Below are positions 12,371 through 19,804 of a DNA stretch of 64,000 nucleotides, in pieces. A program made the translations under genes and the position numbers. The notes under the pieces were generated by a model that ran no database searches, was not told the DNA's origin, and worked only from the letters and a program-made list of their open reading frames with translations. Positions within the stretch are counted from its first letter, which is position 1, and each line of letters starts with the position of its first letter. This stretch comes from Candidatus Solibacter sp. (GTDB lineage: Bacteria > Chloroflexota > Dormibacteria > DASZGP01). Location: positions 355,262-419,261 of the forward strand of contig DATMMS010000005.1 in NCBI GenBank assembly GCA_035569605.1, in the 5' to 3' direction.

Positions 12371-12414
12371 TTGACACGAACGGCTGTTCGTGCATAATAG
12401 CGAACATGAGTTCG
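12371..12414 (+). promoter_or_regulatory. Sigma70-like promoter with two Cheo-type LexA boxes
   Basis: TTGACA 12371-12376, 16-bp spacer, CATAAT 12393-12398; CGAACGGCTGTTCG 12377-12390 fills the spacer; CGAACATGAGTTCG 12401-12414 overlaps the ATG at 12406. Confidence 0.55.
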
Positions 12415-12738
12415 TATGCCGATGTTCACTCTGGCGTCCGCCGTTCGCGCTACTACGCGCCGCCGGTGCCTCGTCGCAAGGCAGCCCGCATCAAGATCGG
12501 CCGGATCCTGGTGGTCCTCGGCATACTCATGATCGTCTTCATGAAGGCAGCCTATGGGGGAGGGCGGACGGGGACGGAATCCATCACCGTGCAGCCCGGC
12601 GAAACGGTTTGGAGCATCGCCGCCATCCGCTACCCGGACGACGACACCCGCAGCAGGGTGGCGGAAATCGTCGAGCTCAACCATCTCGGCAGCGCGCCAA
12701 TCTACTCCGGCGAGCGGCTGAGCATCCCGGCTCAGTAG
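12406..12738 (+). CDS. Small single-pass membrane protein with C-terminal LysM domain (YneA/ChiZ-like architecture)
   Basis: 110 aa; basic N-terminus, TM helix RILVVLGILMIVFM, LysM block ITVQPGETVWSIAA...SGERLSIP. Confidence 0.8.
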   Translation: MSSYADVHSGVRRSRYYAPPVPRRKAARIKIGRILVVLGILMIVFMKAAYGGGRTGTESITVQPGETVWSIAAIRYPDDDTRSRVAEIVELNHLGSAPIYSGERLSIPAQ

Positions 12739-13059
12739 GCACCGTACCCGGCCGGCCCGAAGGGCCGCTCGCGTAGCGTGGACCGGTCTTTGCCGGGCCC
12801 ACGACCGGTACCGTGACCCTCAAATTTGGTGCAAGAAACGCTTTCTGAGAGCGTCGTGTACGACAGAGCTCTTTGTGTGTATGAGTACCTCAGATTTGTC
12901 TGAGGGGGGCCAGTAGTGTTACAACAGTGTTGCAACTGTCACAGGAAGTACTAGGAACAGGGCAAACGCTCGGTGGGATGGCGAGCTTGCGGGAGGATTG
13001 ACGGGGTGAATCGGCGTACTTGTGGGCGTGCAGGCGCACGCCTTGGAAGGGACAGCTAG

Positions 13060-14421
13060 ATGTTCGGCGAACGAATCGCGATTGTTTTCATCACCGCGTC
13101 GTTGCTCCTTGGCGGAGGCCTGGGATACGCGGTCGTGGCCGACTACAACGCGACCAAGAACCTGAAGAACACCGCCACCGCCGGTTCCACCGTAACCACC
13201 GATCTGGGCCCCTCGGCGGAGCCTTCGGCCGCCGCCAGCGCGGCGACTGGGGGAGCGACCGCGACCGTGAATGCCGCCAAGCCGGGGCAGGTGGCGCTCG
13301 CGACCAGCCAGGCGGCCTCCGGCGTCAGCCACGATCAGATCGTCGTCGGCGGCATCTTCGACATGACCGGCCCGGTGGACTCCTCGGTGGAGCGAGACAC
13401 CGTTCGTGCGTACTTCAACAAGGTCAACGCCGCTGGTGGCATCAACGGCAGAAAGCTCGTCCTTACCTACTGCGACTCCCAGTACGACAACGTCCAGACC
13501 CACCAGTGCTCCAACGAGATGGTCAGTGCGCATGTCCTCAGCGTGGTTGGATGGACGGCCCCCAAGGGGGAGAACGACGAGGTCAAGTTCCTTGCTCAGC
13601 AGGAGCAGATTCCGATCATCGGCGGCCTGGGAACGCCGGAAGAGTTCAACTACCCGCTTTCCTACCCGGTCTCAACTTCGTTCACGCGAGCCGGACCGGG
13701 ACTCGCGGACGAGCTCAGCATGAACGGGTTCAAGCACCCGTCGATCATCTACATCAACGACGTGCCCTGGATTCAGCCCGTGCTGCAGGCGATCCTCGAT
13801 TCCCTGCATGCCCGGGGCATCCATGAGGCCAGCGTGGAGCCGGCCGCATCGACGGACCAGGACTACACCGGTCACGTCAACAACCTGCAGCAGGGCGGCC
13901 CTGACTCCCTGATCGCGGCGCTCGACCCGTTCAGCTACGCCCGTCTGTTCTCCGCGATGAACCGCGTCGGCTGGCACCCGCCAGTGATCGGCGCCGGGCT
14001 GGACAAGGGCAACCAGCAGCACGCGTACAGCACCCAGCTGGAACACGCGCAGTCACTGGTGCCCTTCCTGTCTCCGTACGATCACCAGAACAACGCCACC
14101 GTGGTCGACTACCTGAACACCGTCCAGCGCTACTACCCGCAACAGGTGCCGGCGCTGGACATCTACACGCAGATAGCCTGGTCGGCGGCCCAGGTCTTTG
14201 TCGAGGCCGTCAAACGCGCGGGGGCCAACCTCACGCGGGCTTCGCTGGTCCAGGCGCTGAACTCGATCCAGAACTTCGACACCGGGTGGTCGAGACCTCT
14301 GTCCTACAGCGCCAACACCCCTCACGACCCCAACCGTTGCTACACGTACGTGAAGCACGACCCGACGACATACGACCAAGGCGGGACCTGGCACACGTAC
14401 ACCGACTGGAAATGCTTCTAG
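13060..14421 (+). CDS. ABC transporter substrate-binding protein, type I periplasmic binding fold (branched-chain amino acid LivK-like)
   Basis: 453 aa; N-terminal membrane anchor/signal, IVVGGIFDMTGPVDSS...VNAAGGINGRKLVLTYCDSQYD blocks typical of Leu/Ile/Val-binding protein family; first gene of operon. Confidence 0.85.
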   Translation: MFGERIAIVFITASLLLGGGLGYAVVADYNATKNLKNTATAGSTVTTDLGPSAEPSAAASAATGGATATVNAAKPGQVALATSQAASGVSHDQIVVGGIFDMTGPVDSSVERDTVRAYFNKVNAAGGINGRKLVLTYCDSQYDNVQTHQCSNEMVSAHVLSVVGWTAPKGENDEVKFLAQQEQIPIIGGLGTPEEFNYPLSYPVSTSFTRAGPGLADELSMNGFKHPSIIYINDVPWIQPVLQAILDSLHARGIHEASVEPAASTDQDYTGHVNNLQQGGPDSLIAALDPFSYARLFSAMNRVGWHPPVIGAGLDKGNQQHAYSTQLEHAQSLVPFLSPYDHQNNATVVDYLNTVQRYYPQQVPALDIYTQIAWSAAQVFVEAVKRAGANLTRASLVQALNSIQNFDTGWSRPLSYSANTPHDPNRCYTYVKHDPTTYDQGGTWHTYTDWKCF

Positions 14422-15377
14422 CCGGGTTCCTCGGTCACTTCGCGGCGATAACCGTCGCCGGGATCGTGCTGGGCGGAATCTTTGCGCTCACCGCCGTGGG
14501 CATCGTGCTGGTGTATCGCGTCACCGGCGTTCTCAACCTGGCCCAGGGCGCGATGGGGATGTTCTCGACCTTCATGGCCTGGGCGGTGCTCCATTACTGG
14601 CATCCCTTTGCCAAGACCTCGAACCTGGCTTTCAGCACCCCGAGCTCGATCGCGGTGGCCGTCGTCGTGGCGCTGCTTTTCTCGCTGCTGTTGGGCCTGG
14701 CGCTGGAAAACCTGGTCTTCCGCTGGATCCGCGGACGGCCGCCGGTGGTCAAGACGGTCGTGACGGTCGGCATCCTGCTGACCCTGCAATCGTCAGCGGC
14801 GCTGCTCTTCGGCAGCACCCAGTACCACGAGGCGATCCAGTTCTTCGACAGCTCACGCTGTCCTGACACCAACCTTCTCTGCTTCACCATCGTCCTTGGG
14901 CCGGTTCGCTTCGGCTACGACCAGCTGCTGGTTGTCGGAGCGACCCTGCTGCTCGCCACCGGGCTGGCGCTCTTCCTCCGCTACGCCCGAGTTGGGGTGG
15001 CGATGAGGGCGGTATCAGACGACGCCGTCGCCGCCAGCCTGTATGGCATCCCCGTGAACATGATCGGTTCGGTTTCGTGGATGCTCGGGAGCCTGGTGGC
15101 CGCGGTCGCCGGGATCCTGCTGATCTCCATCGGGGTCACCTTCGACACCGTCAGCCTCACGGTTCTGATCGTGGATGGGCTGGCGGCCGCCCTGATCGGA
15201 GGCCTGGTCTCACTGCCGCTTGCGGTCGTTGGCGGCTTTGCGCTTGGCCTTCTGGAGACCTATCCAAAGCTGTGGATCTCGCAGTCGACCGGCCTGCCCA
15301 AGGTCATCGCCATCCTGGTGATCCTGGCGGTTCTGATGCTTCGCAGTGAGCGCTCGCTGCTGAGGGCAAAGACGTGA
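14412..15377 (+). CDS. livH: Branched-chain amino acid ABC transporter permease (LivH-like)
   Basis: Polytopic membrane protein; ATG 14412 overlaps SBP stop; ORF-track start 14286 is an upstream extension. Confidence 0.85.
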   Translation: MLLAGFLGHFAAITVAGIVLGGIFALTAVGIVLVYRVTGVLNLAQGAMGMFSTFMAWAVLHYWHPFAKTSNLAFSTPSSIAVAVVVALLFSLLLGLALENLVFRWIRGRPPVVKTVVTVGILLTLQSSAALLFGSTQYHEAIQFFDSSRCPDTNLLCFTIVLGPVRFGYDQLLVVGATLLLATGLALFLRYARVGVAMRAVSDDAVAASLYGIPVNMIGSVSWMLGSLVAAVAGILLISIGVTFDTVSLTVLIVDGLAAALIGGLVSLPLAVVGGFALGLLETYPKLWISQSTGLPKVIAILVILAVLMLRSERSLLRAKT

Positions 15378-16420
15378 TCGTGGGACGGCGGGGCCGCATT
15401 GTAGCCGGGTTGCTGTCGCTGCTGGTCGCGGCGCTGGTGCCCCTGCTGCTCCCGGTCGGGATGCAGAACCTGGCCATCGGAGGCGCCCTGGCGGTGTCGG
15501 TCCTGTACGCCTTCGGCGTGCTCTCGGTGGTCGTCCTCACTGGCTATGTCGGCCAGGTCTCGTTCTGCCAGGCGACCTTCATGGGGATCTCGGCGCTGGC
15601 AACCGCCGCACTGGTGAACCACGGCCTCAACTACTTCGCCAGCGCCGCCGTCGGGGTCGCGCTCTCGTTCGCGCTCGGCATCATCGTCGGGATCCCGGCG
15701 CTCCGTCTCCGCGGCATCCTGCTCGCTGTGGTCACCGTCGGCGTGGCTCTCAGCTTCGACTATTTCTTCTTCCAGGACGCTTCCTTCGGCTGGTTCAACG
15801 GCGGCCTTTCGGGCTGGAAGGTGGAAGAGGCGACCTTCTTCGGGTTGAGCCTGAACAACCTCGACTTCGATCACCTGATCAAGGTCTACTGGCTGCTGTT
15901 GGCGCTGTTCGCGGTGATCGCGGTCGCGATCGTCAACCTCCATGACTCCGGCAGCGGCCGCCGGTTCCGCGCCATTCGGGACTCTGAGGTGGCGGCGGCC
16001 ACCATGGGCGTCGACCTCACTCGCTACAAGCTGCTCGCCTTCGGCATCTCGGCGGCGATCGCCGGGGTAGGGGGGGCGTTCTTCCCGCTGGTCGAAGGCG
16101 CTGTTACGCACGATCCCTTCTCCTTCTTCCACTCCTTGACCCTGGCGGCGGTGGCGGTCCTGGTCGGGATCAGGTTCATTCCAGCGGCGATCCTGGGTGG
16201 CGTGTTCCTGCAGCTGTTCCCTTACGCGATCGCCAAGCTGGAGCAGGGGTTGAACCACCAGGACATCGGACTGACCTGGTTCAACGCCGTGCTCGGCGCC
16301 CTGCTGGTGTTCCAGCTGATCGTCTATCCCGACGGGGTGTGGGGCTCGCAAGCAAAGCAGACTTCGCACGCCCTGTCGAAGTTGCCGGTTGCCAGGCGCC
16401 CGGTGAGGGCGGTCCAATGA
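15374..16420 (+). CDS. livM: Branched-chain amino acid ABC transporter permease (LivM-like)
   Basis: Polytopic membrane protein; GTGA overlap with livH stop. Confidence 0.85.
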
Positions 16421-18138
16421 GCCTGCTCTCGGTGAAAGACGTCAGCCTCTCCTTCGGTGGGGTGCGCGCGCTCGACTCGGTGTCGTTGGAGCTGAACCAG
16501 GGAGAGATCCTGGGCCTGATCGGCCCCAACGGTGCCGGCAAGACCACGCTCTTCAACTGCATCTCCGGTGTGCTGCGCCCGGATCACGGCCAGATTCGAT
16601 TCGAGGATCAGCCGATCCTGCGGCTCAAGCCCCACGAGCGTGCCCAGCGGGGGATAGCCCGGACCTTCCAGGACCTCCAGGTCTGGCACTCCATGACAGT
16701 CCTCGAGAACTGCCAGCTTCCCTTCGACGCGCTCTCCGGGCGGAGCACGATCGCCGACGCTCTGCGGCTGCCGTGGGCCAACCAGGTCGAGCGGGAATCG
16801 ATCGAGCGAGCCCGCGCGGTGCTCCACTCCCTCGATCTGCTCGAGCACAGCGAGCGCCTCGCCGGCGACCTGCCCGTCGGTCTCCAACGCCGAGTCGAGA
16901 TCGCGCGGGCCCTGGCGATGAAACCCAAGCTGATCCTGCTCGACGAGCCGGCTTCGGGCCTCGACGCGGACGAGACCAACGCGCTGGCCGCAGCGCTGAA
17001 CCGGATCCGCGACAAGTTCAACGTCTCGATGCTGCTGGTCGATCACGACATGAGCCTGGTGATGCGCGCCTGCGACTACCTCTACGTCTTGGACTTCGGG
17101 GAGCTGATCTCGACCGGCCGGCCGGAGCGCGTCCGCGAGGATCCCCGCGTCATCGAGGCCTACCTGGGAGCGGCCGCCGAAGCCACGACCGAGGCCGAGA
17201 CGGTGAAAGCCAGGCCGAAGAAGAAGCTCGAGGTGCTGCCGCCGGTGTCGCCTCAGCCATTGCTCGAGGTCAAGGACATGTCGGCGGGGTACGGCGGCAT
17301 CGAGGTGATCCGCGGCATCAGCCTGACCGTCGGGCGCGGCGAAATCGTGGCCTGCATCGGCGCCAACGGCGCGGGCAAGACCACCACGCTGCGGGCCATC
17401 TCCGGGATCCTTCGCACCAACCGCGGCAAGGTGACGTTTGACGGCAAAGACATCACCAGGAAGGCCCCCGAGGCGATCGTCCGGCTGGGCATGGTTCATA
17501 TCCCGCAGGGGAGGGGGTTGTTCCCTCAACTGACGGTTGCCGAGACCCTTCGGCTGGCCTCGTACAGCGGCGCCGCCAGCGTCGACCTGACGCCGGCCCT
17601 GGACGCATTCCCGATGCTGAAGACCCGGCTCAACCAGGCCGTCGGCACGCTCTCGGGTGGGCAGCAGCAGATGGTGGCTCTGGCGCGAGCGCTGCTGGTT
17701 CAGCCCAAGCTGCTGTTCCTCGACGAGATGTCCCAGGGGCTGGCGCCGGCCGTCGTGCAACAGCTGTTCGAGCGGATCGAGCTCTTCCGCAAGAGCGGCA
17801 CCTCGGTCTTCCTGGTCGAACAATTCGTGGACTCGGCGCTGGCGATAGCGGACCGCGCCTACGTCTTCGAACAGGGTTCGGTGGCCGTGGAAGGCCCGGC
17901 GTCCGTGATGCGTCGCGACCGTGATGTGATCGCAGGCGCTTACCTGGGGACGGCGGTCGCGATGGCCGAGGTGAGCAGCAACGGCAACGGACACCACGCC
18001 TCGGCGTTGCTGGCCGACCTGTCGATCAAGCTGCCGGCCGAGTTGAAGCGTGCGGTCCAGGAGCGGGCCGCGAGCGAAGGCAAAGATCCCGGAGAGATGA
18101 TTGCGGAGTTGCTAGCCGCAGGAGGGCGAGCGAAATGA
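16417..18138 (+). CDS. Fused tandem ABC ATPase (LivG-like + LivF-like domains) with about 50-aa C-terminal extension
   Basis: Two Walker A motifs ([12 protein letters not shown]; [14 protein letters not shown]), two signature/Walker B sets; ATG 16417 gives ATGA overlap with livM; tail after the usual ...AYLG end. Confidence 0.85.
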
Positions 18139-19544
18139 CCAGGCCTCGGTTGCGCACGTCGAAGACAGTCGCGTTCGGTATTTTTGTCGCGTTCACAGGC
18201 CTGCTGCTGCTGGCCGCCACTGTAATGGCCGAGGTGCCCGCAACCGTCGACTCCTACGGCGGCAACGCCTTTGCCTCGGGTGTCCACGTCATCGTCGGCA
18301 GCAACAACGACCCCAACTTCTCCAACGGCGCGATCGGAAACCGGTATCCGCTGGCCCAGGCGGGGCAGGACATCTCGCCGGCATCGTCAGCGACAGCGAG
18401 CGTCGACGACTACGGGCCGTTGGTGTCGACCGTCCTCGGCAATGACTGCAACGCGCCGCCGCCGAGCCCTCTGCCGGCACCGTCGCCGCAGCCCAGTCCG
18501 AACTACTGCCTGGAACAGATCCGCAGGGACGTCCCGTACGCCCGGGCCCAGTTCCCCAACCCGCCCGGTGTGGCGGATCAGACGGTCAACGGTCCGAGCG
18601 ACCCCAGCCTGCCCCCGCTGCCAAGCACGGGCACGGCAAGCGCTCACGCCCGGGAGCTCCGGGCCTTCGCCGATGGCGTCTACACGGGATCGCCGGACGG
18701 AGCCACGTTCACCAACGCCACGGCCCACAGCGAGACCGGCGTCGCCAGTGATGGAACCATCACCGTCCGGACCCATTCCCACATCGGCTCCGCGTGTTTC
18801 GGCAGCTGCGGAGTGTCCAACTGGCTCCAGGTCACCAACACCGACGTGCAGACCATCGTCACCGCCGTCAACGGCAAGCCCGTGCCGCAGGCCGTGGTGG
18901 CGCCAGGACAGGTGCAGTTCTGTTCCGCGCCGGGGAACTGCCAGTCGGTGCAACTCTCAAACAACGGCGTCACCGTCGGAGGAATCGCCCCCCCGACGCC
19001 GCCTCCACCGGTCCCCGGTATTCCCACGTCGGTGCCGGTCCCAGGTACGGGAGCCAGCGGCGAGACCCCATTCTTCAAGGTCCGCACCATCAACCCGATC
19101 AAGTCCGTCAACGGCTCCACCGGGTCCATCGATGCTCTGGGCCTCGACGTCGAGGTCATGCAGCCGGGCAACTCGGGCTCCGGTATTCCCGACTCCCAGG
19201 TCGAGTTCATCCTCGGTGAGGGCCACGCCGACGGCTTCTCGCTGGCCTCGCTCGGTCTTGAGTCCGGCGGCGTCACCGACCTAACCGGCGGTGGCGACAC
19301 CGGCTCGCTGCTGGGGAGCATCGTGGGGGATAACCCAGGCGGCAGCGCCGCCGGCGTCACGCTGCCCGCGATCAAGCACACCGTCATCCGCCCCGGCGGA
19401 TTGGCTCTGGCGGGAGCTCTGCGGCCTCCGTTCATACCCTGGTTCTACGCCTGGGAAGCCTCCGCCTTCGCGGCCGCCGCTTCGATGGTCTGGGCCCGAA
19501 GGAGCCGTCTGAGAGACATTGCCGAGGAGGCGCTGGGCCAATGA
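18135..19544 (+). CDS. Hypothetical secreted/membrane-anchored protein, Pro-rich, Cys-containing
   Basis: 469 aa; N-terminal signal/anchor (VAFGIFVAFTGLLLLAA), C-terminal hydrophobic segment; ATGA overlap with ATPase stop; no family recognised. Confidence 0.6.
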   Translation: MTRPRLRTSKTVAFGIFVAFTGLLLLAATVMAEVPATVDSYGGNAFASGVHVIVGSNNDPNFSNGAIGNRYPLAQAGQDISPASSATASVDDYGPLVSTVLGNDCNAPPPSPLPAPSPQPSPNYCLEQIRRDVPYARAQFPNPPGVADQTVNGPSDPSLPPLPSTGTASAHARELRAFADGVYTGSPDGATFTNATAHSETGVASDGTITVRTHSHIGSACFGSCGVSNWLQVTNTDVQTIVTAVNGKPVPQAVVAPGQVQFCSAPGNCQSVQLSNNGVTVGGIAPPTPPPPVPGIPTSVPVPGTGASGETPFFKVRTINPIKSVNGSTGSIDALGLDVEVMQPGNSGSGIPDSQVEFILGEGHADGFSLASLGLESGGVTDLTGGGDTGSLLGSIVGDNPGGSAAGVTLPAIKHTVIRPGGLALAGALRPPFIPWFYAWEASAFAAAASMVWARRSRLRDIAEEALGQ

Positions 19545-19804
19545 GCGTGATGGCGGCCCGAACCGGCAAGACCACCCTGCACTGCCCCAACGACGACTGG
19601 GATTTCGATCCCCGATACACGGAGGGGGTATGCCCGATCTGCGGCTGGGGTCCGGGAAAGCGGCCCACCGCGGCCTGGCTGGCGCGGGTTGAGGCCCTGC
19701 CCTGGGACTACATCACGCTGGCGATCTTTGCTGTCGTGCTGCTCGTCGTGGGTGTGCTCGTCGGCATGGCCGCCAACGTGAACATCCTTCCCCAGGGCGC
19801 CTGA
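19541..19804 (+). CDS. Small zinc-ribbon membrane protein (hypothetical)
   Basis: 87 aa; CPNDDW...CPICGW Cys pairs then TM helix ITLAIFAVVLLVVGVLVGM; ATGA overlap with upstream gene. Confidence 0.5.
   Translation: MSVMAARTGKTTLHCPNDDWDFDPRYTEGVCPICGWGPGKRPTAAWLARVEALPWDYITLAIFAVVLLVVGVLVGMAANVNILPQGA

Follow-up and report, generated by a model that had tools for sequence, protein, structure and literature searches.

What does a repressor-type fold do at the end of a transporter motor protein? This question is raised by a 64,000-nucleotide (nt) stretch of DNA, here called the window, from a metagenome-assembled genome (MAG) deposited as Candidatus Solibacter sp. (assembly GCA_035569605.1, contig DATMMS010000005.1, positions 355,262 to 419,261). 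The window carries a six-gene cassette for an ATP-binding cassette (ABC) importer whose two ATPase domains, of LivG and LivF type, are fused into one chain, and the reading frame of this chain runs on past the second ATPase domain. An initial annotation, made without database searches, had proposed that the added tail has the layout of a ribbon-helix-helix (RHH) domain. Profile searches and structure prediction indicate, with high confidence, that the last ~40 residues of the fused ATPase are a genuine RHH domain of the Arc/CopG/MetJ superfamily, translated as part of the ATPase. Our preferred and tentative answer to the question itself is that the domain binds DNA and regulates the cassette in which it is encoded.

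An RHH domain at the end of a fused ATPase

The open reading frame occupies positions 16339..18138 of the + strand. Its start is best taken at the ATG at 16417, which overlaps the stop codon of the upstream permease gene, and it ends with TGA at 18136-18138, yielding a protein of 573 amino acids (aa; 16417..18138, +). The LivG-type ATPase domain (aa 1-255; 16417..17181, +) matches NF008449 LivG with E=1.2e-116 and 388 bits, above the cut-off of 362, and the LivG C-terminal signature PF12399 is found at aa 229-254 (40 bits, cut-off 25.5). A linker of 26 aa (aa 256-281; 17182..17259, +) connects it to the LivF/UrtE-type domain (aa 282-511; 17260..17949, +), which ends in ...AGAYLG and is recognised by TIGR03410 UrtE at aa 283-500 (348 bits, cut-off 286). 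The LivF model NF008626 matches aa 282-511 below its cut-off (289 against 441), so that this half is assigned at family level only. Both ATPase domains, the LivG signature and the operon partners place the protein among HAAT-family ATPases, again at family level. In the NCBI and JGI annotations the protein (HXA42657.1) appears just as an ATP-binding cassette or branched-chain amino acid transport protein.

Beyond ...DVIAGAYLG, the end of the second ATPase domain, the frame continues for 62 codons (17950-18135; base 17950 is the first base of codon 512). The initial annotation had recognised this continuation and placed it exactly; its estimate of about 50 aa was too short, and the peptide it quoted omits TAV after YLG. 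The tail begins with an Asn/Gly/His-rich tether (aa 512-530; 17950..18006, +), variable in length and sequence, for which the predicted local distance difference test (pLDDT) is 49-53. The RHH domain follows (aa 531-570; 18007..18126, +). In the predicted topology an extended strand segment, aa 533-540 (ADLSIKLP; 18013-18036, +), leads into helix A (aa 541-554; 18037-18078, +), which is followed by the loop EGKD and helix B (aa 558-570; 18088-18126, +).

We compared the tail with RHH families, a check that the initial annotation had suggested. Residues 25-56 of the window tail match Pfam RHH_1 with E=7.7e-4 and 19.8 bits, 0.7 bits under the gathering cut-off of 20.5. When 50 orthologous fused tails were scanned singly against Pfam, FitA-like_RHH was matched by 32 (best 1.6e-6) and RHH_1 by 30 (best 5.3e-6), with further matches to RHH_5 (7 tails), CopG_antitoxin (4) and Arc (3). 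The one match to a non-RHH family was that of a single tail to Metal_resist. Membership in the RHH superfamily is thus supported by significant profile matches at the level of the family, the window tail being borderline.

Structure prediction led to the same fold. AlphaFold2, run on the tail alignment, gave an extended segment at tail residues 22-29 and helices at 30-43 and 47-59, with a core pLDDT of 88-89 and about 50 in the tether. The strand-helix-helix topology of the core (~40-45 aa), with alternating buried and exposed strand residues, is that of an RHH domain. In a Foldseek search against the PDB, the top neighbours were nearly all RHH proteins (StnY, Arc, the Rv0298 antitoxin, CdbA, CopG, VapB, AmrZ, MazE-mt10, the DNA-binding domain of PutA (2jxg), AtaR and ParG), with probability up to 0.96 and TM-score (target) of 0.6-0.75. 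A PDB sequence-profile search with the tail alignment recovered no RHH protein, because the domain is too short and divergent; the fold search was therefore needed. In the monomer model the strand is unpaired, as is to be expected of an obligate dimer.

The strand itself has the expected pattern. Relative to an invariant Pro, positions -5, -3 and -1 are hydrophobic and positions -6, -4 and -2 polar; P, R and A are invariant. Lys or Arg stands at position -2 in 81 of the 85 distinct fused tails. Aligned by hhalign, the tail falls into register with Arc and CopG as an RHH domain should, and the conserved Lys/Arg lines up with Arc R13 and CopG T8, two DNA-reading positions that contact bases. The loop of RHH domains typically contains Gly, in a G-x-S/T/N type of sequence, and the N-terminus of helix B contacts phosphate. 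Here, the Gly in the loop before helix B is conserved in at least 90% of sequences, and the residue two further on varies (D in the window; S, N, P, T or V elsewhere). Taken with the conservation described below, profile matches in orthologous tails, predicted topology and structural neighbours bear out the RHH-like layout that had been proposed from the sequence alone.

Conservation and age of the tail

Full-length relatives of the fused ATPase numbered 118 (more than 110 clusters, 57-89% identical, 560-627 aa), almost all of them from Candidatus Dormibacterota MAGs. Every one has the tail in a continuous frame, which settles in its favour the conservation among orthologues that the initial annotation had wished to see examined. 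The layout is the same throughout, a variable (NG)n-H-rich tether preceding a conserved core. Mean pairwise identity among the 118 is 0.73 for the LivG-type and 0.70 for the LivF-type domain, 0.56 for the RHH core, 0.30 for the tether, 0.19 for the extreme C-terminus and 0.12 for the linker between the ATPase domains. Against close relatives, the ratio of nonsynonymous to synonymous polymorphism (pN/pS) of the core is 0.09-0.18. The RHH core is under purifying selection.

Two observations were made along the way. In the tether, positions 17980-17997 (aa 522-527) encode (Asn-Gly)n-His repeats, NGNGHH here and up to NGNGNGNGHH in relatives, which could provide simple flexibility or a metal-binding His/Asn patch. 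Furthermore, in two near-identical relatives, L017 (WNFI01025367.1) and L018 (WNFI01051625.1), the ATPase gene is frameshifted some 90 codons ahead of its end; the RHH is still encoded, but out of frame, and the products have 500 and 506 aa (P0006 and P0007). These frameshifts are likely assembly errors rather than pseudogenes.

Is the tail as young as the fusion that carries it? A profile search over 1.84 billion representatives returned one representative of the fused family, together with fragments of a more divergent family of LivF plus tail. From one such fragment we reached LivF-type proteins without the fusion, more than 100 in number and 300-345 aa long, compared with ~235-255 aa for ordinary LivF. 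Their tail contains an RHH domain with the core VsVsLPPALvRgLEERAaREGV..ELvr; several have a precomputed RHH_1 match, and RHH_1 was matched by 23 of 27 unfused tails (best 2.4e-7). By hhalign, the tails of the two families are homologous (98.1%, E=1e-13). The hosts are Acidimicrobiia/Acidimicrobiales, other Actinomycetota and Dormibacterota MAGs.

In the related cassettes examined LivG and LivF are separate genes, in agreement with the initial annotation, which had called the tandem fusion unusual. Since homologous RHH tails occur on unfused LivF and relatives keep the two genes apart, the LivG-LivF fusion is derived. Judged by these sequence comparisons, the RHH tail predates the fusion, which is a derived trait of one Dormibacterota clade.

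The unfused proteins have one more feature. In this family (P0202-P0320), 70 of 111 distinct proteins extend past the RHH domain with a stretch of net charge of at least +5 (median 21 aa). These Lys/Arg-rich, low-complexity tails have a median net charge of +6, and one of them matches the histone-H1-like HC2. Such basic tails are absent from the fused clade. Their composition in the unfused clade hints at DNA binding.

The cassette and proteins X and Y

The fused ATPase is the fourth of six genes at 13060..19804. Adjacent genes overlap by 4-10 nt, and the six therefore form one translationally coupled operon. The first encodes a substrate-binding protein of 453 aa with an N-terminal membrane anchor (13060..14421, +; Peripla_BP_6, PF13458, E=3.8e-43), whose sole NCBIfam match lies far under cut-off. 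The start of the LivH/UrtB-like permease gene (14412..15377, +) overlaps the end of the binding-protein gene; its product matches NCBIfam UrtB/LivH below cut-off, and BPD_transp_2 is found in orthologous loci. The LivM/UrtC-like permease (15374..16420, +) is likewise assigned from NCBIfam matches below cut-off and from orthologous loci. With binding protein and permeases far below the curated Liv/Urt cut-offs, the substrate is not assignable.

The ATPase gene is followed by genes for two membrane proteins, which we call X and Y. Protein X (469 aa; 18135..19544, +), whose ATG overlaps the ATPase stop codon (ATGA), has a signal peptide, a beta-rich ectodomain and a C-terminal membrane helix; across loci it is ~420-500 aa long and its signal peptide has an AxA site. 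It has no match in Pfam, NCBIfam or PDB sequences, and its AlphaFold2 model, from a 16-sequence alignment, reached a mean pLDDT of 53 and gave noise in Foldseek (TM-score < 0.2), with no fold match. Protein Y (87 aa; 19541..19804, +) consists of a cytoplasmic Cys-knuckle and one membrane helix, and it is conserved after X in fused and unfused cassettes. It is ~75-140 aa long across loci, carries the motif C-x2-D-x-W-x-F-x-P-x-Y-T-x-G-x-CPxCG[WY] on the cytoplasmic side (CPxCGW in the window) and matches no Pfam or NCBIfam family.

A locus search with a 9-sequence core alignment, limited by its narrow peptide pattern, covered 11 loci from genomes and 36 from metagenomes. In all fused loci long enough to judge, the ATPase is followed by homologues of X and Y (the window, L001-L051), and they also follow RHH-bearing LivF in seven unfused loci from Dormibacterota, Acidimicrobiales and Actinomycetota. 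The order binding protein, two permeases, RHH-bearing ATPase(s), X, Y is constant in every locus of sufficient length. Flanking genes vary between loci, and no other regulator gene lies within the cassette. X and Y, membrane proteins of no known family that occur in two phyla, may hold more of the novelty of the system than its other components.

Sequences upstream of the cassette

Arc, CopG and omega repressors bind repeats one helical turn apart. A repeat search in the window revealed a tandem 11-nt direct repeat, AGTGTTACAAC/AGTGTTGCAAC, at 12915..12936 (+), 124-145 nt upstream of the first cassette gene, which we regard as a candidate operator. It has only these two copies in the window, a number also reached in 9 of 100 shuffles, and it is kept in the close relatives L017 and L018. 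The upstream region holding it contains no Rfam family and, at that spot, no sigma-70-like promoter.

Other fused clades have blocks of their own. Ten loci of a second clade (clade B) share the block GGGTACt-nnn-GcGTACc-nnn-GCGTATCC, situated 57-93 nt before the start codon and made up of three G(G/C)GTA(C/T) sites with 10-bp spacing. The pattern GTA[CT]-N5-7, three times over, was defined post hoc; its seven occurrences in 522 kb of DNA are every one at the clade-B spot. No conserved RNA fold or covariation was detected in the clade-B leader. In a third fused clade (L007, L008), three to four TGTAA elements are again spaced by 10 bp. In a periodicity test over 19 upstream regions, which was not significant on average, comparison of the cases with z of at least 3 between periods 10-11 and other periods gave a Fisher p of about 0.0005-0.002, which, obtained with mononucleotide shuffles and related sequences, is a hint only.

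A separate run of 8-12-nt tandem repeats, CCCGGTAGC/CCCGGTAC, lies in one Dormibacterota MAG (L005, 2110-2190), between the cassette and a LysM gene described below. These repeats are unrelated to the candidate operator.

What the domain may do

RHH domains work in pairs, a two-stranded beta-ribbon formed by the dimer entering the major groove of DNA, and we know of no characterised RHH domain that does not bind nucleic acid. The reading we prefer, with a probability of roughly 40%, is that of a transporter-tethered DNA-binding domain which autoregulates its own cassette. The RHH would hang from the LivF-type domain on its flexible, variable tether, and tails from two ATPase subunits, belonging to two transporters or to unassembled ATPase, would pair. 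The paired tails would bind repeats that lie ahead of the six-gene cassette at intervals of one helical turn, and would thereby set its transcription. How far these sites are occupied would vary with the assembly or conformation of the transporter, perhaps also with the co-inherited X and Y. We infer all four elements of this scheme: dimerisation, DNA binding, the operator and the coupling to transport. Hints of DNA binding come from the basic tails of the unfused proteins, from a cassette that has varying flanks but holds no other regulator, and from the upstream repeats of three fused clades. A bolder version, which we consider doubtful, would make this importer class of Dormibacterota and Actinomycetota its own transcription factor: neighbouring tails would pair only in a particular transport or assembly state, perhaps set by the surface protein X and the Cys-knuckle of Y, and the pair would bind DNA at the membrane.

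A number of points speak against autoregulation through DNA binding. The main difficulty is stoichiometry. The fused chain, like the LivG+LivF heterodimer of unfused systems, provides a single RHH per transporter and the fold needs two chains, so that two ATPase subunits would have to pair; no second or partner RHH is encoded in the 64-kb window, and the host protein of the domain sits on a membrane complex. As for the domain itself, the window tail taken singly stays under the Pfam gathering score, and the Foldseek E-values are weak (0.2-1), the domain being so short. Position -2 is mostly Ser, Thr or Ala in the unfused clade, not Lys or Arg, and a Glu ahead of the strand, conserved in fused and unfused clades, is not an obvious DNA contact. 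On the side of the DNA, mean z-scores for periodicity over 19 upstream regions are no higher at 10-11 than at 6 or 12, two of the high scores come from low-complexity G/C runs, and footprinting of five unfused Dormibacterota loci disclosed no shared or alignable upstream repeat. The upstream blocks could moreover simply belong to promoters of this phylum.

Alternatively, the RHH may serve for protein contacts. It would then pair two transporters, dock on X (by its cytoplasmic tail) or on Y (by its cytoplasmic Cys-knuckle), or fold back on the ATPase domains as a regulatory or inhibitory module. This is the main rival, and we consider it a possibility of lesser weight. The strict co-inheritance of the RHH tail with X and Y across two phyla favours such a role; a single RHH per transporter, awkward for a DNA-binding dimer, the conserved acidic residue before the strand and the lack of a general operator signal in the upstream regions compared would also suit it. 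Importer ATPases commonly carry C-terminal regulatory domains, and a fold-back role would have parallels in those of MalK, MetN, ModC and OpuAA. Those domains, however, occur twice per transporter and have other folds, and we know of no RHH whose sole role is docking. The basic, histone-like tails of the unfused clade fit nucleic-acid binding better, though binding to acidic lipids is also possible.

It is rather unlikely that the RHH acts as a free small repressor, released from an internal start or by proteolysis in the Asn/Gly/His linker, the fusion being a means of producing regulator and transporter together. Regulators that are tethered to the membrane and then released have precedents, the long and variable linker is predicted to be disordered, many orthologues have Met just before the strand (LMEIVSV...), and 81 of 118 have some Met in the linker. 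Yet neither that pre-strand Met nor the Met of MAEV..., the internal start proposed in the initial annotation, is conserved: close orthologues lack the latter (TAVAITAANG..., TAVSADAPAV...), the window reads LLADL at the pre-strand position, and the exchange of Leu and Met there has the look of a common replacement of one hydrophobic residue by another. Neither the 118 full-length homologues nor the unfused family shows a break in the frame, and no cleavage motif was identified in the linker. Short RHH proteins in the databases give the proposed start no support either. We rejected as stand-alone RHH genes P0128 (53 aa, starting 35 nt from a contig end) and other calls of 36-53 aa that begin at the pre-strand Met, all of them ATPase genes truncated at contig edges.

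Very improbable, finally, is a non-functional RHH, the tail being instead a hairpin of helices, or a formerly separate downstream regulator gene that was captured by loss of a stop codon and is now decaying: the sub-threshold Pfam score of the window tail, the PDB sequence-profile search without RHH and the strand not formed in the monomer model would fit it, but the core is conserved across two phyla with the low pN/pS given above, dozens of orthologous tails match RHH families, the structural neighbours are RHH proteins, the strand alternates buried and exposed residues as an RHH should, and an unpaired strand is what a monomer model of an obligate dimer is expected to show.

Comparison with known systems

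In gene set, gene order and LivG signature PF12399, the cassette resembles the LivFGHMJ and UrtABCDE (HAAT) importers, from which it differs by the RHH on a LivF tail that is longer by 60-110 aa, by the joining of LivG and LivF into one chain in this clade and by the addition of X and Y. The best profile and fold matches of the tail are found among the stand-alone RHH repressors and antitoxins, a group that includes Arc, CopG, FitA, VapB, AmrZ, NikR and MetJ. Stand-alone RHH repressors bind tandem or inverted repeats one helical turn apart, and two of them, NikR and MetJ, regulate operons of ABC importers. Such repressors and antitoxins are, however, separate small proteins or combine the RHH with a sensor, whereas here the fold forms the end of a transporter motor protein. 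A type II antitoxin module (FitA, VapB or CopG-antitoxin) was considered and rejected: the RHH ends an ATPase chain of 573 aa, neither X nor Y matches a toxin family, and, with no toxin gene alongside, this is not a toxin-antitoxin module.

The closest parallel in concept is PutA (proline utilisation A) of E. coli and Salmonella, in which an RHH is likewise covalently attached to a large protein working at the membrane, and whose DNA-binding domain is among the Foldseek neighbours of the tail. PutA carries its RHH at the N-terminus, supplies both RHH chains as a homodimer, moves back and forth between membrane and DNA and acts as the repressor of its own operon. This dual role, biochemistry combined with repression of the own operon, may serve as a model for autoregulation by the fused ATPase. 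In the latter, by contrast, each transporter has a single RHH, placed at the C-terminus of an ABC ATPase, and binding to DNA is a proposal.

An extra domain after the ATPase domain is also known from the importers MalK and ModC (TOBE-type), MetN (NIL/C2) and OpuAA (CBS). Each transporter has two copies of its TOBE, NIL or CBS domain; these domains act on the ATPase and have small ligands or other proteins as binding partners, and none has a DNA-binding fold. The domain described here does not belong among them, since its fold is RHH and it is carried by the LivF-type half, not by the LivG-type half. Regulation of ABC importers is usually the task of separate repressors or of partner proteins touching the ATPase. 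In the classic case, MalK couples transport to transcription by sequestering MalT, a coupling that the scheme proposed here resembles in concept.

No published account of an RHH-ABC ATPase fusion or of the cassette was found in full-text searches of a collection that lacks most subscription-journal papers. If autoregulation is real, no link between transport and transcription could be shorter than a repressor-type fold on the ATPase. In the bolder version, gene expression would report on transport itself, with no separate regulator in between. Conservation across two phyla makes this a testable system and not a one-off fusion. Should the tail not bind DNA, it would be a rare case of an RHH fold serving another purpose. 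The cassette, currently annotated simply as 'branched-chain amino acid ABC transporter', is moreover a variant importer of seven components, two of them membrane proteins that belong to no known family. It is common in soil Dormibacterota, a phylum that has hardly been studied by experiment.

Other features of the locus

The source MAG is named Candidatus Solibacter sp. (Acidobacteriota) by NCBI, yet the named close homologues of the ATPase all come from Dormibacterota ('Chloroflexi') MAGs, as does the sole named homologue of X. The label of the bin is probably wrong.

Ahead of the cassette, a strong sigma-70-like promoter (TTGACA-16-CATAAT) at 12371-12398 encloses GAAC-N4-GTTC, which resembles a LexA/Cheo box. 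Directly 3' of it, 12406-12738 (+) encodes a membrane-anchored LysM protein of 110 aa that is YneA-like (NCBIfam E=8.8e-10, below cut-off). YneA is an SOS cell-division suppressor. The LysM gene and the GAAC-N4-GTTC box also precede the cassette in L001 and L005-L008, and lexA lies near the L001 copy. From this arrangement of genes and motifs, the LysM gene ahead of the cassette is probably an SOS-controlled division inhibitor.

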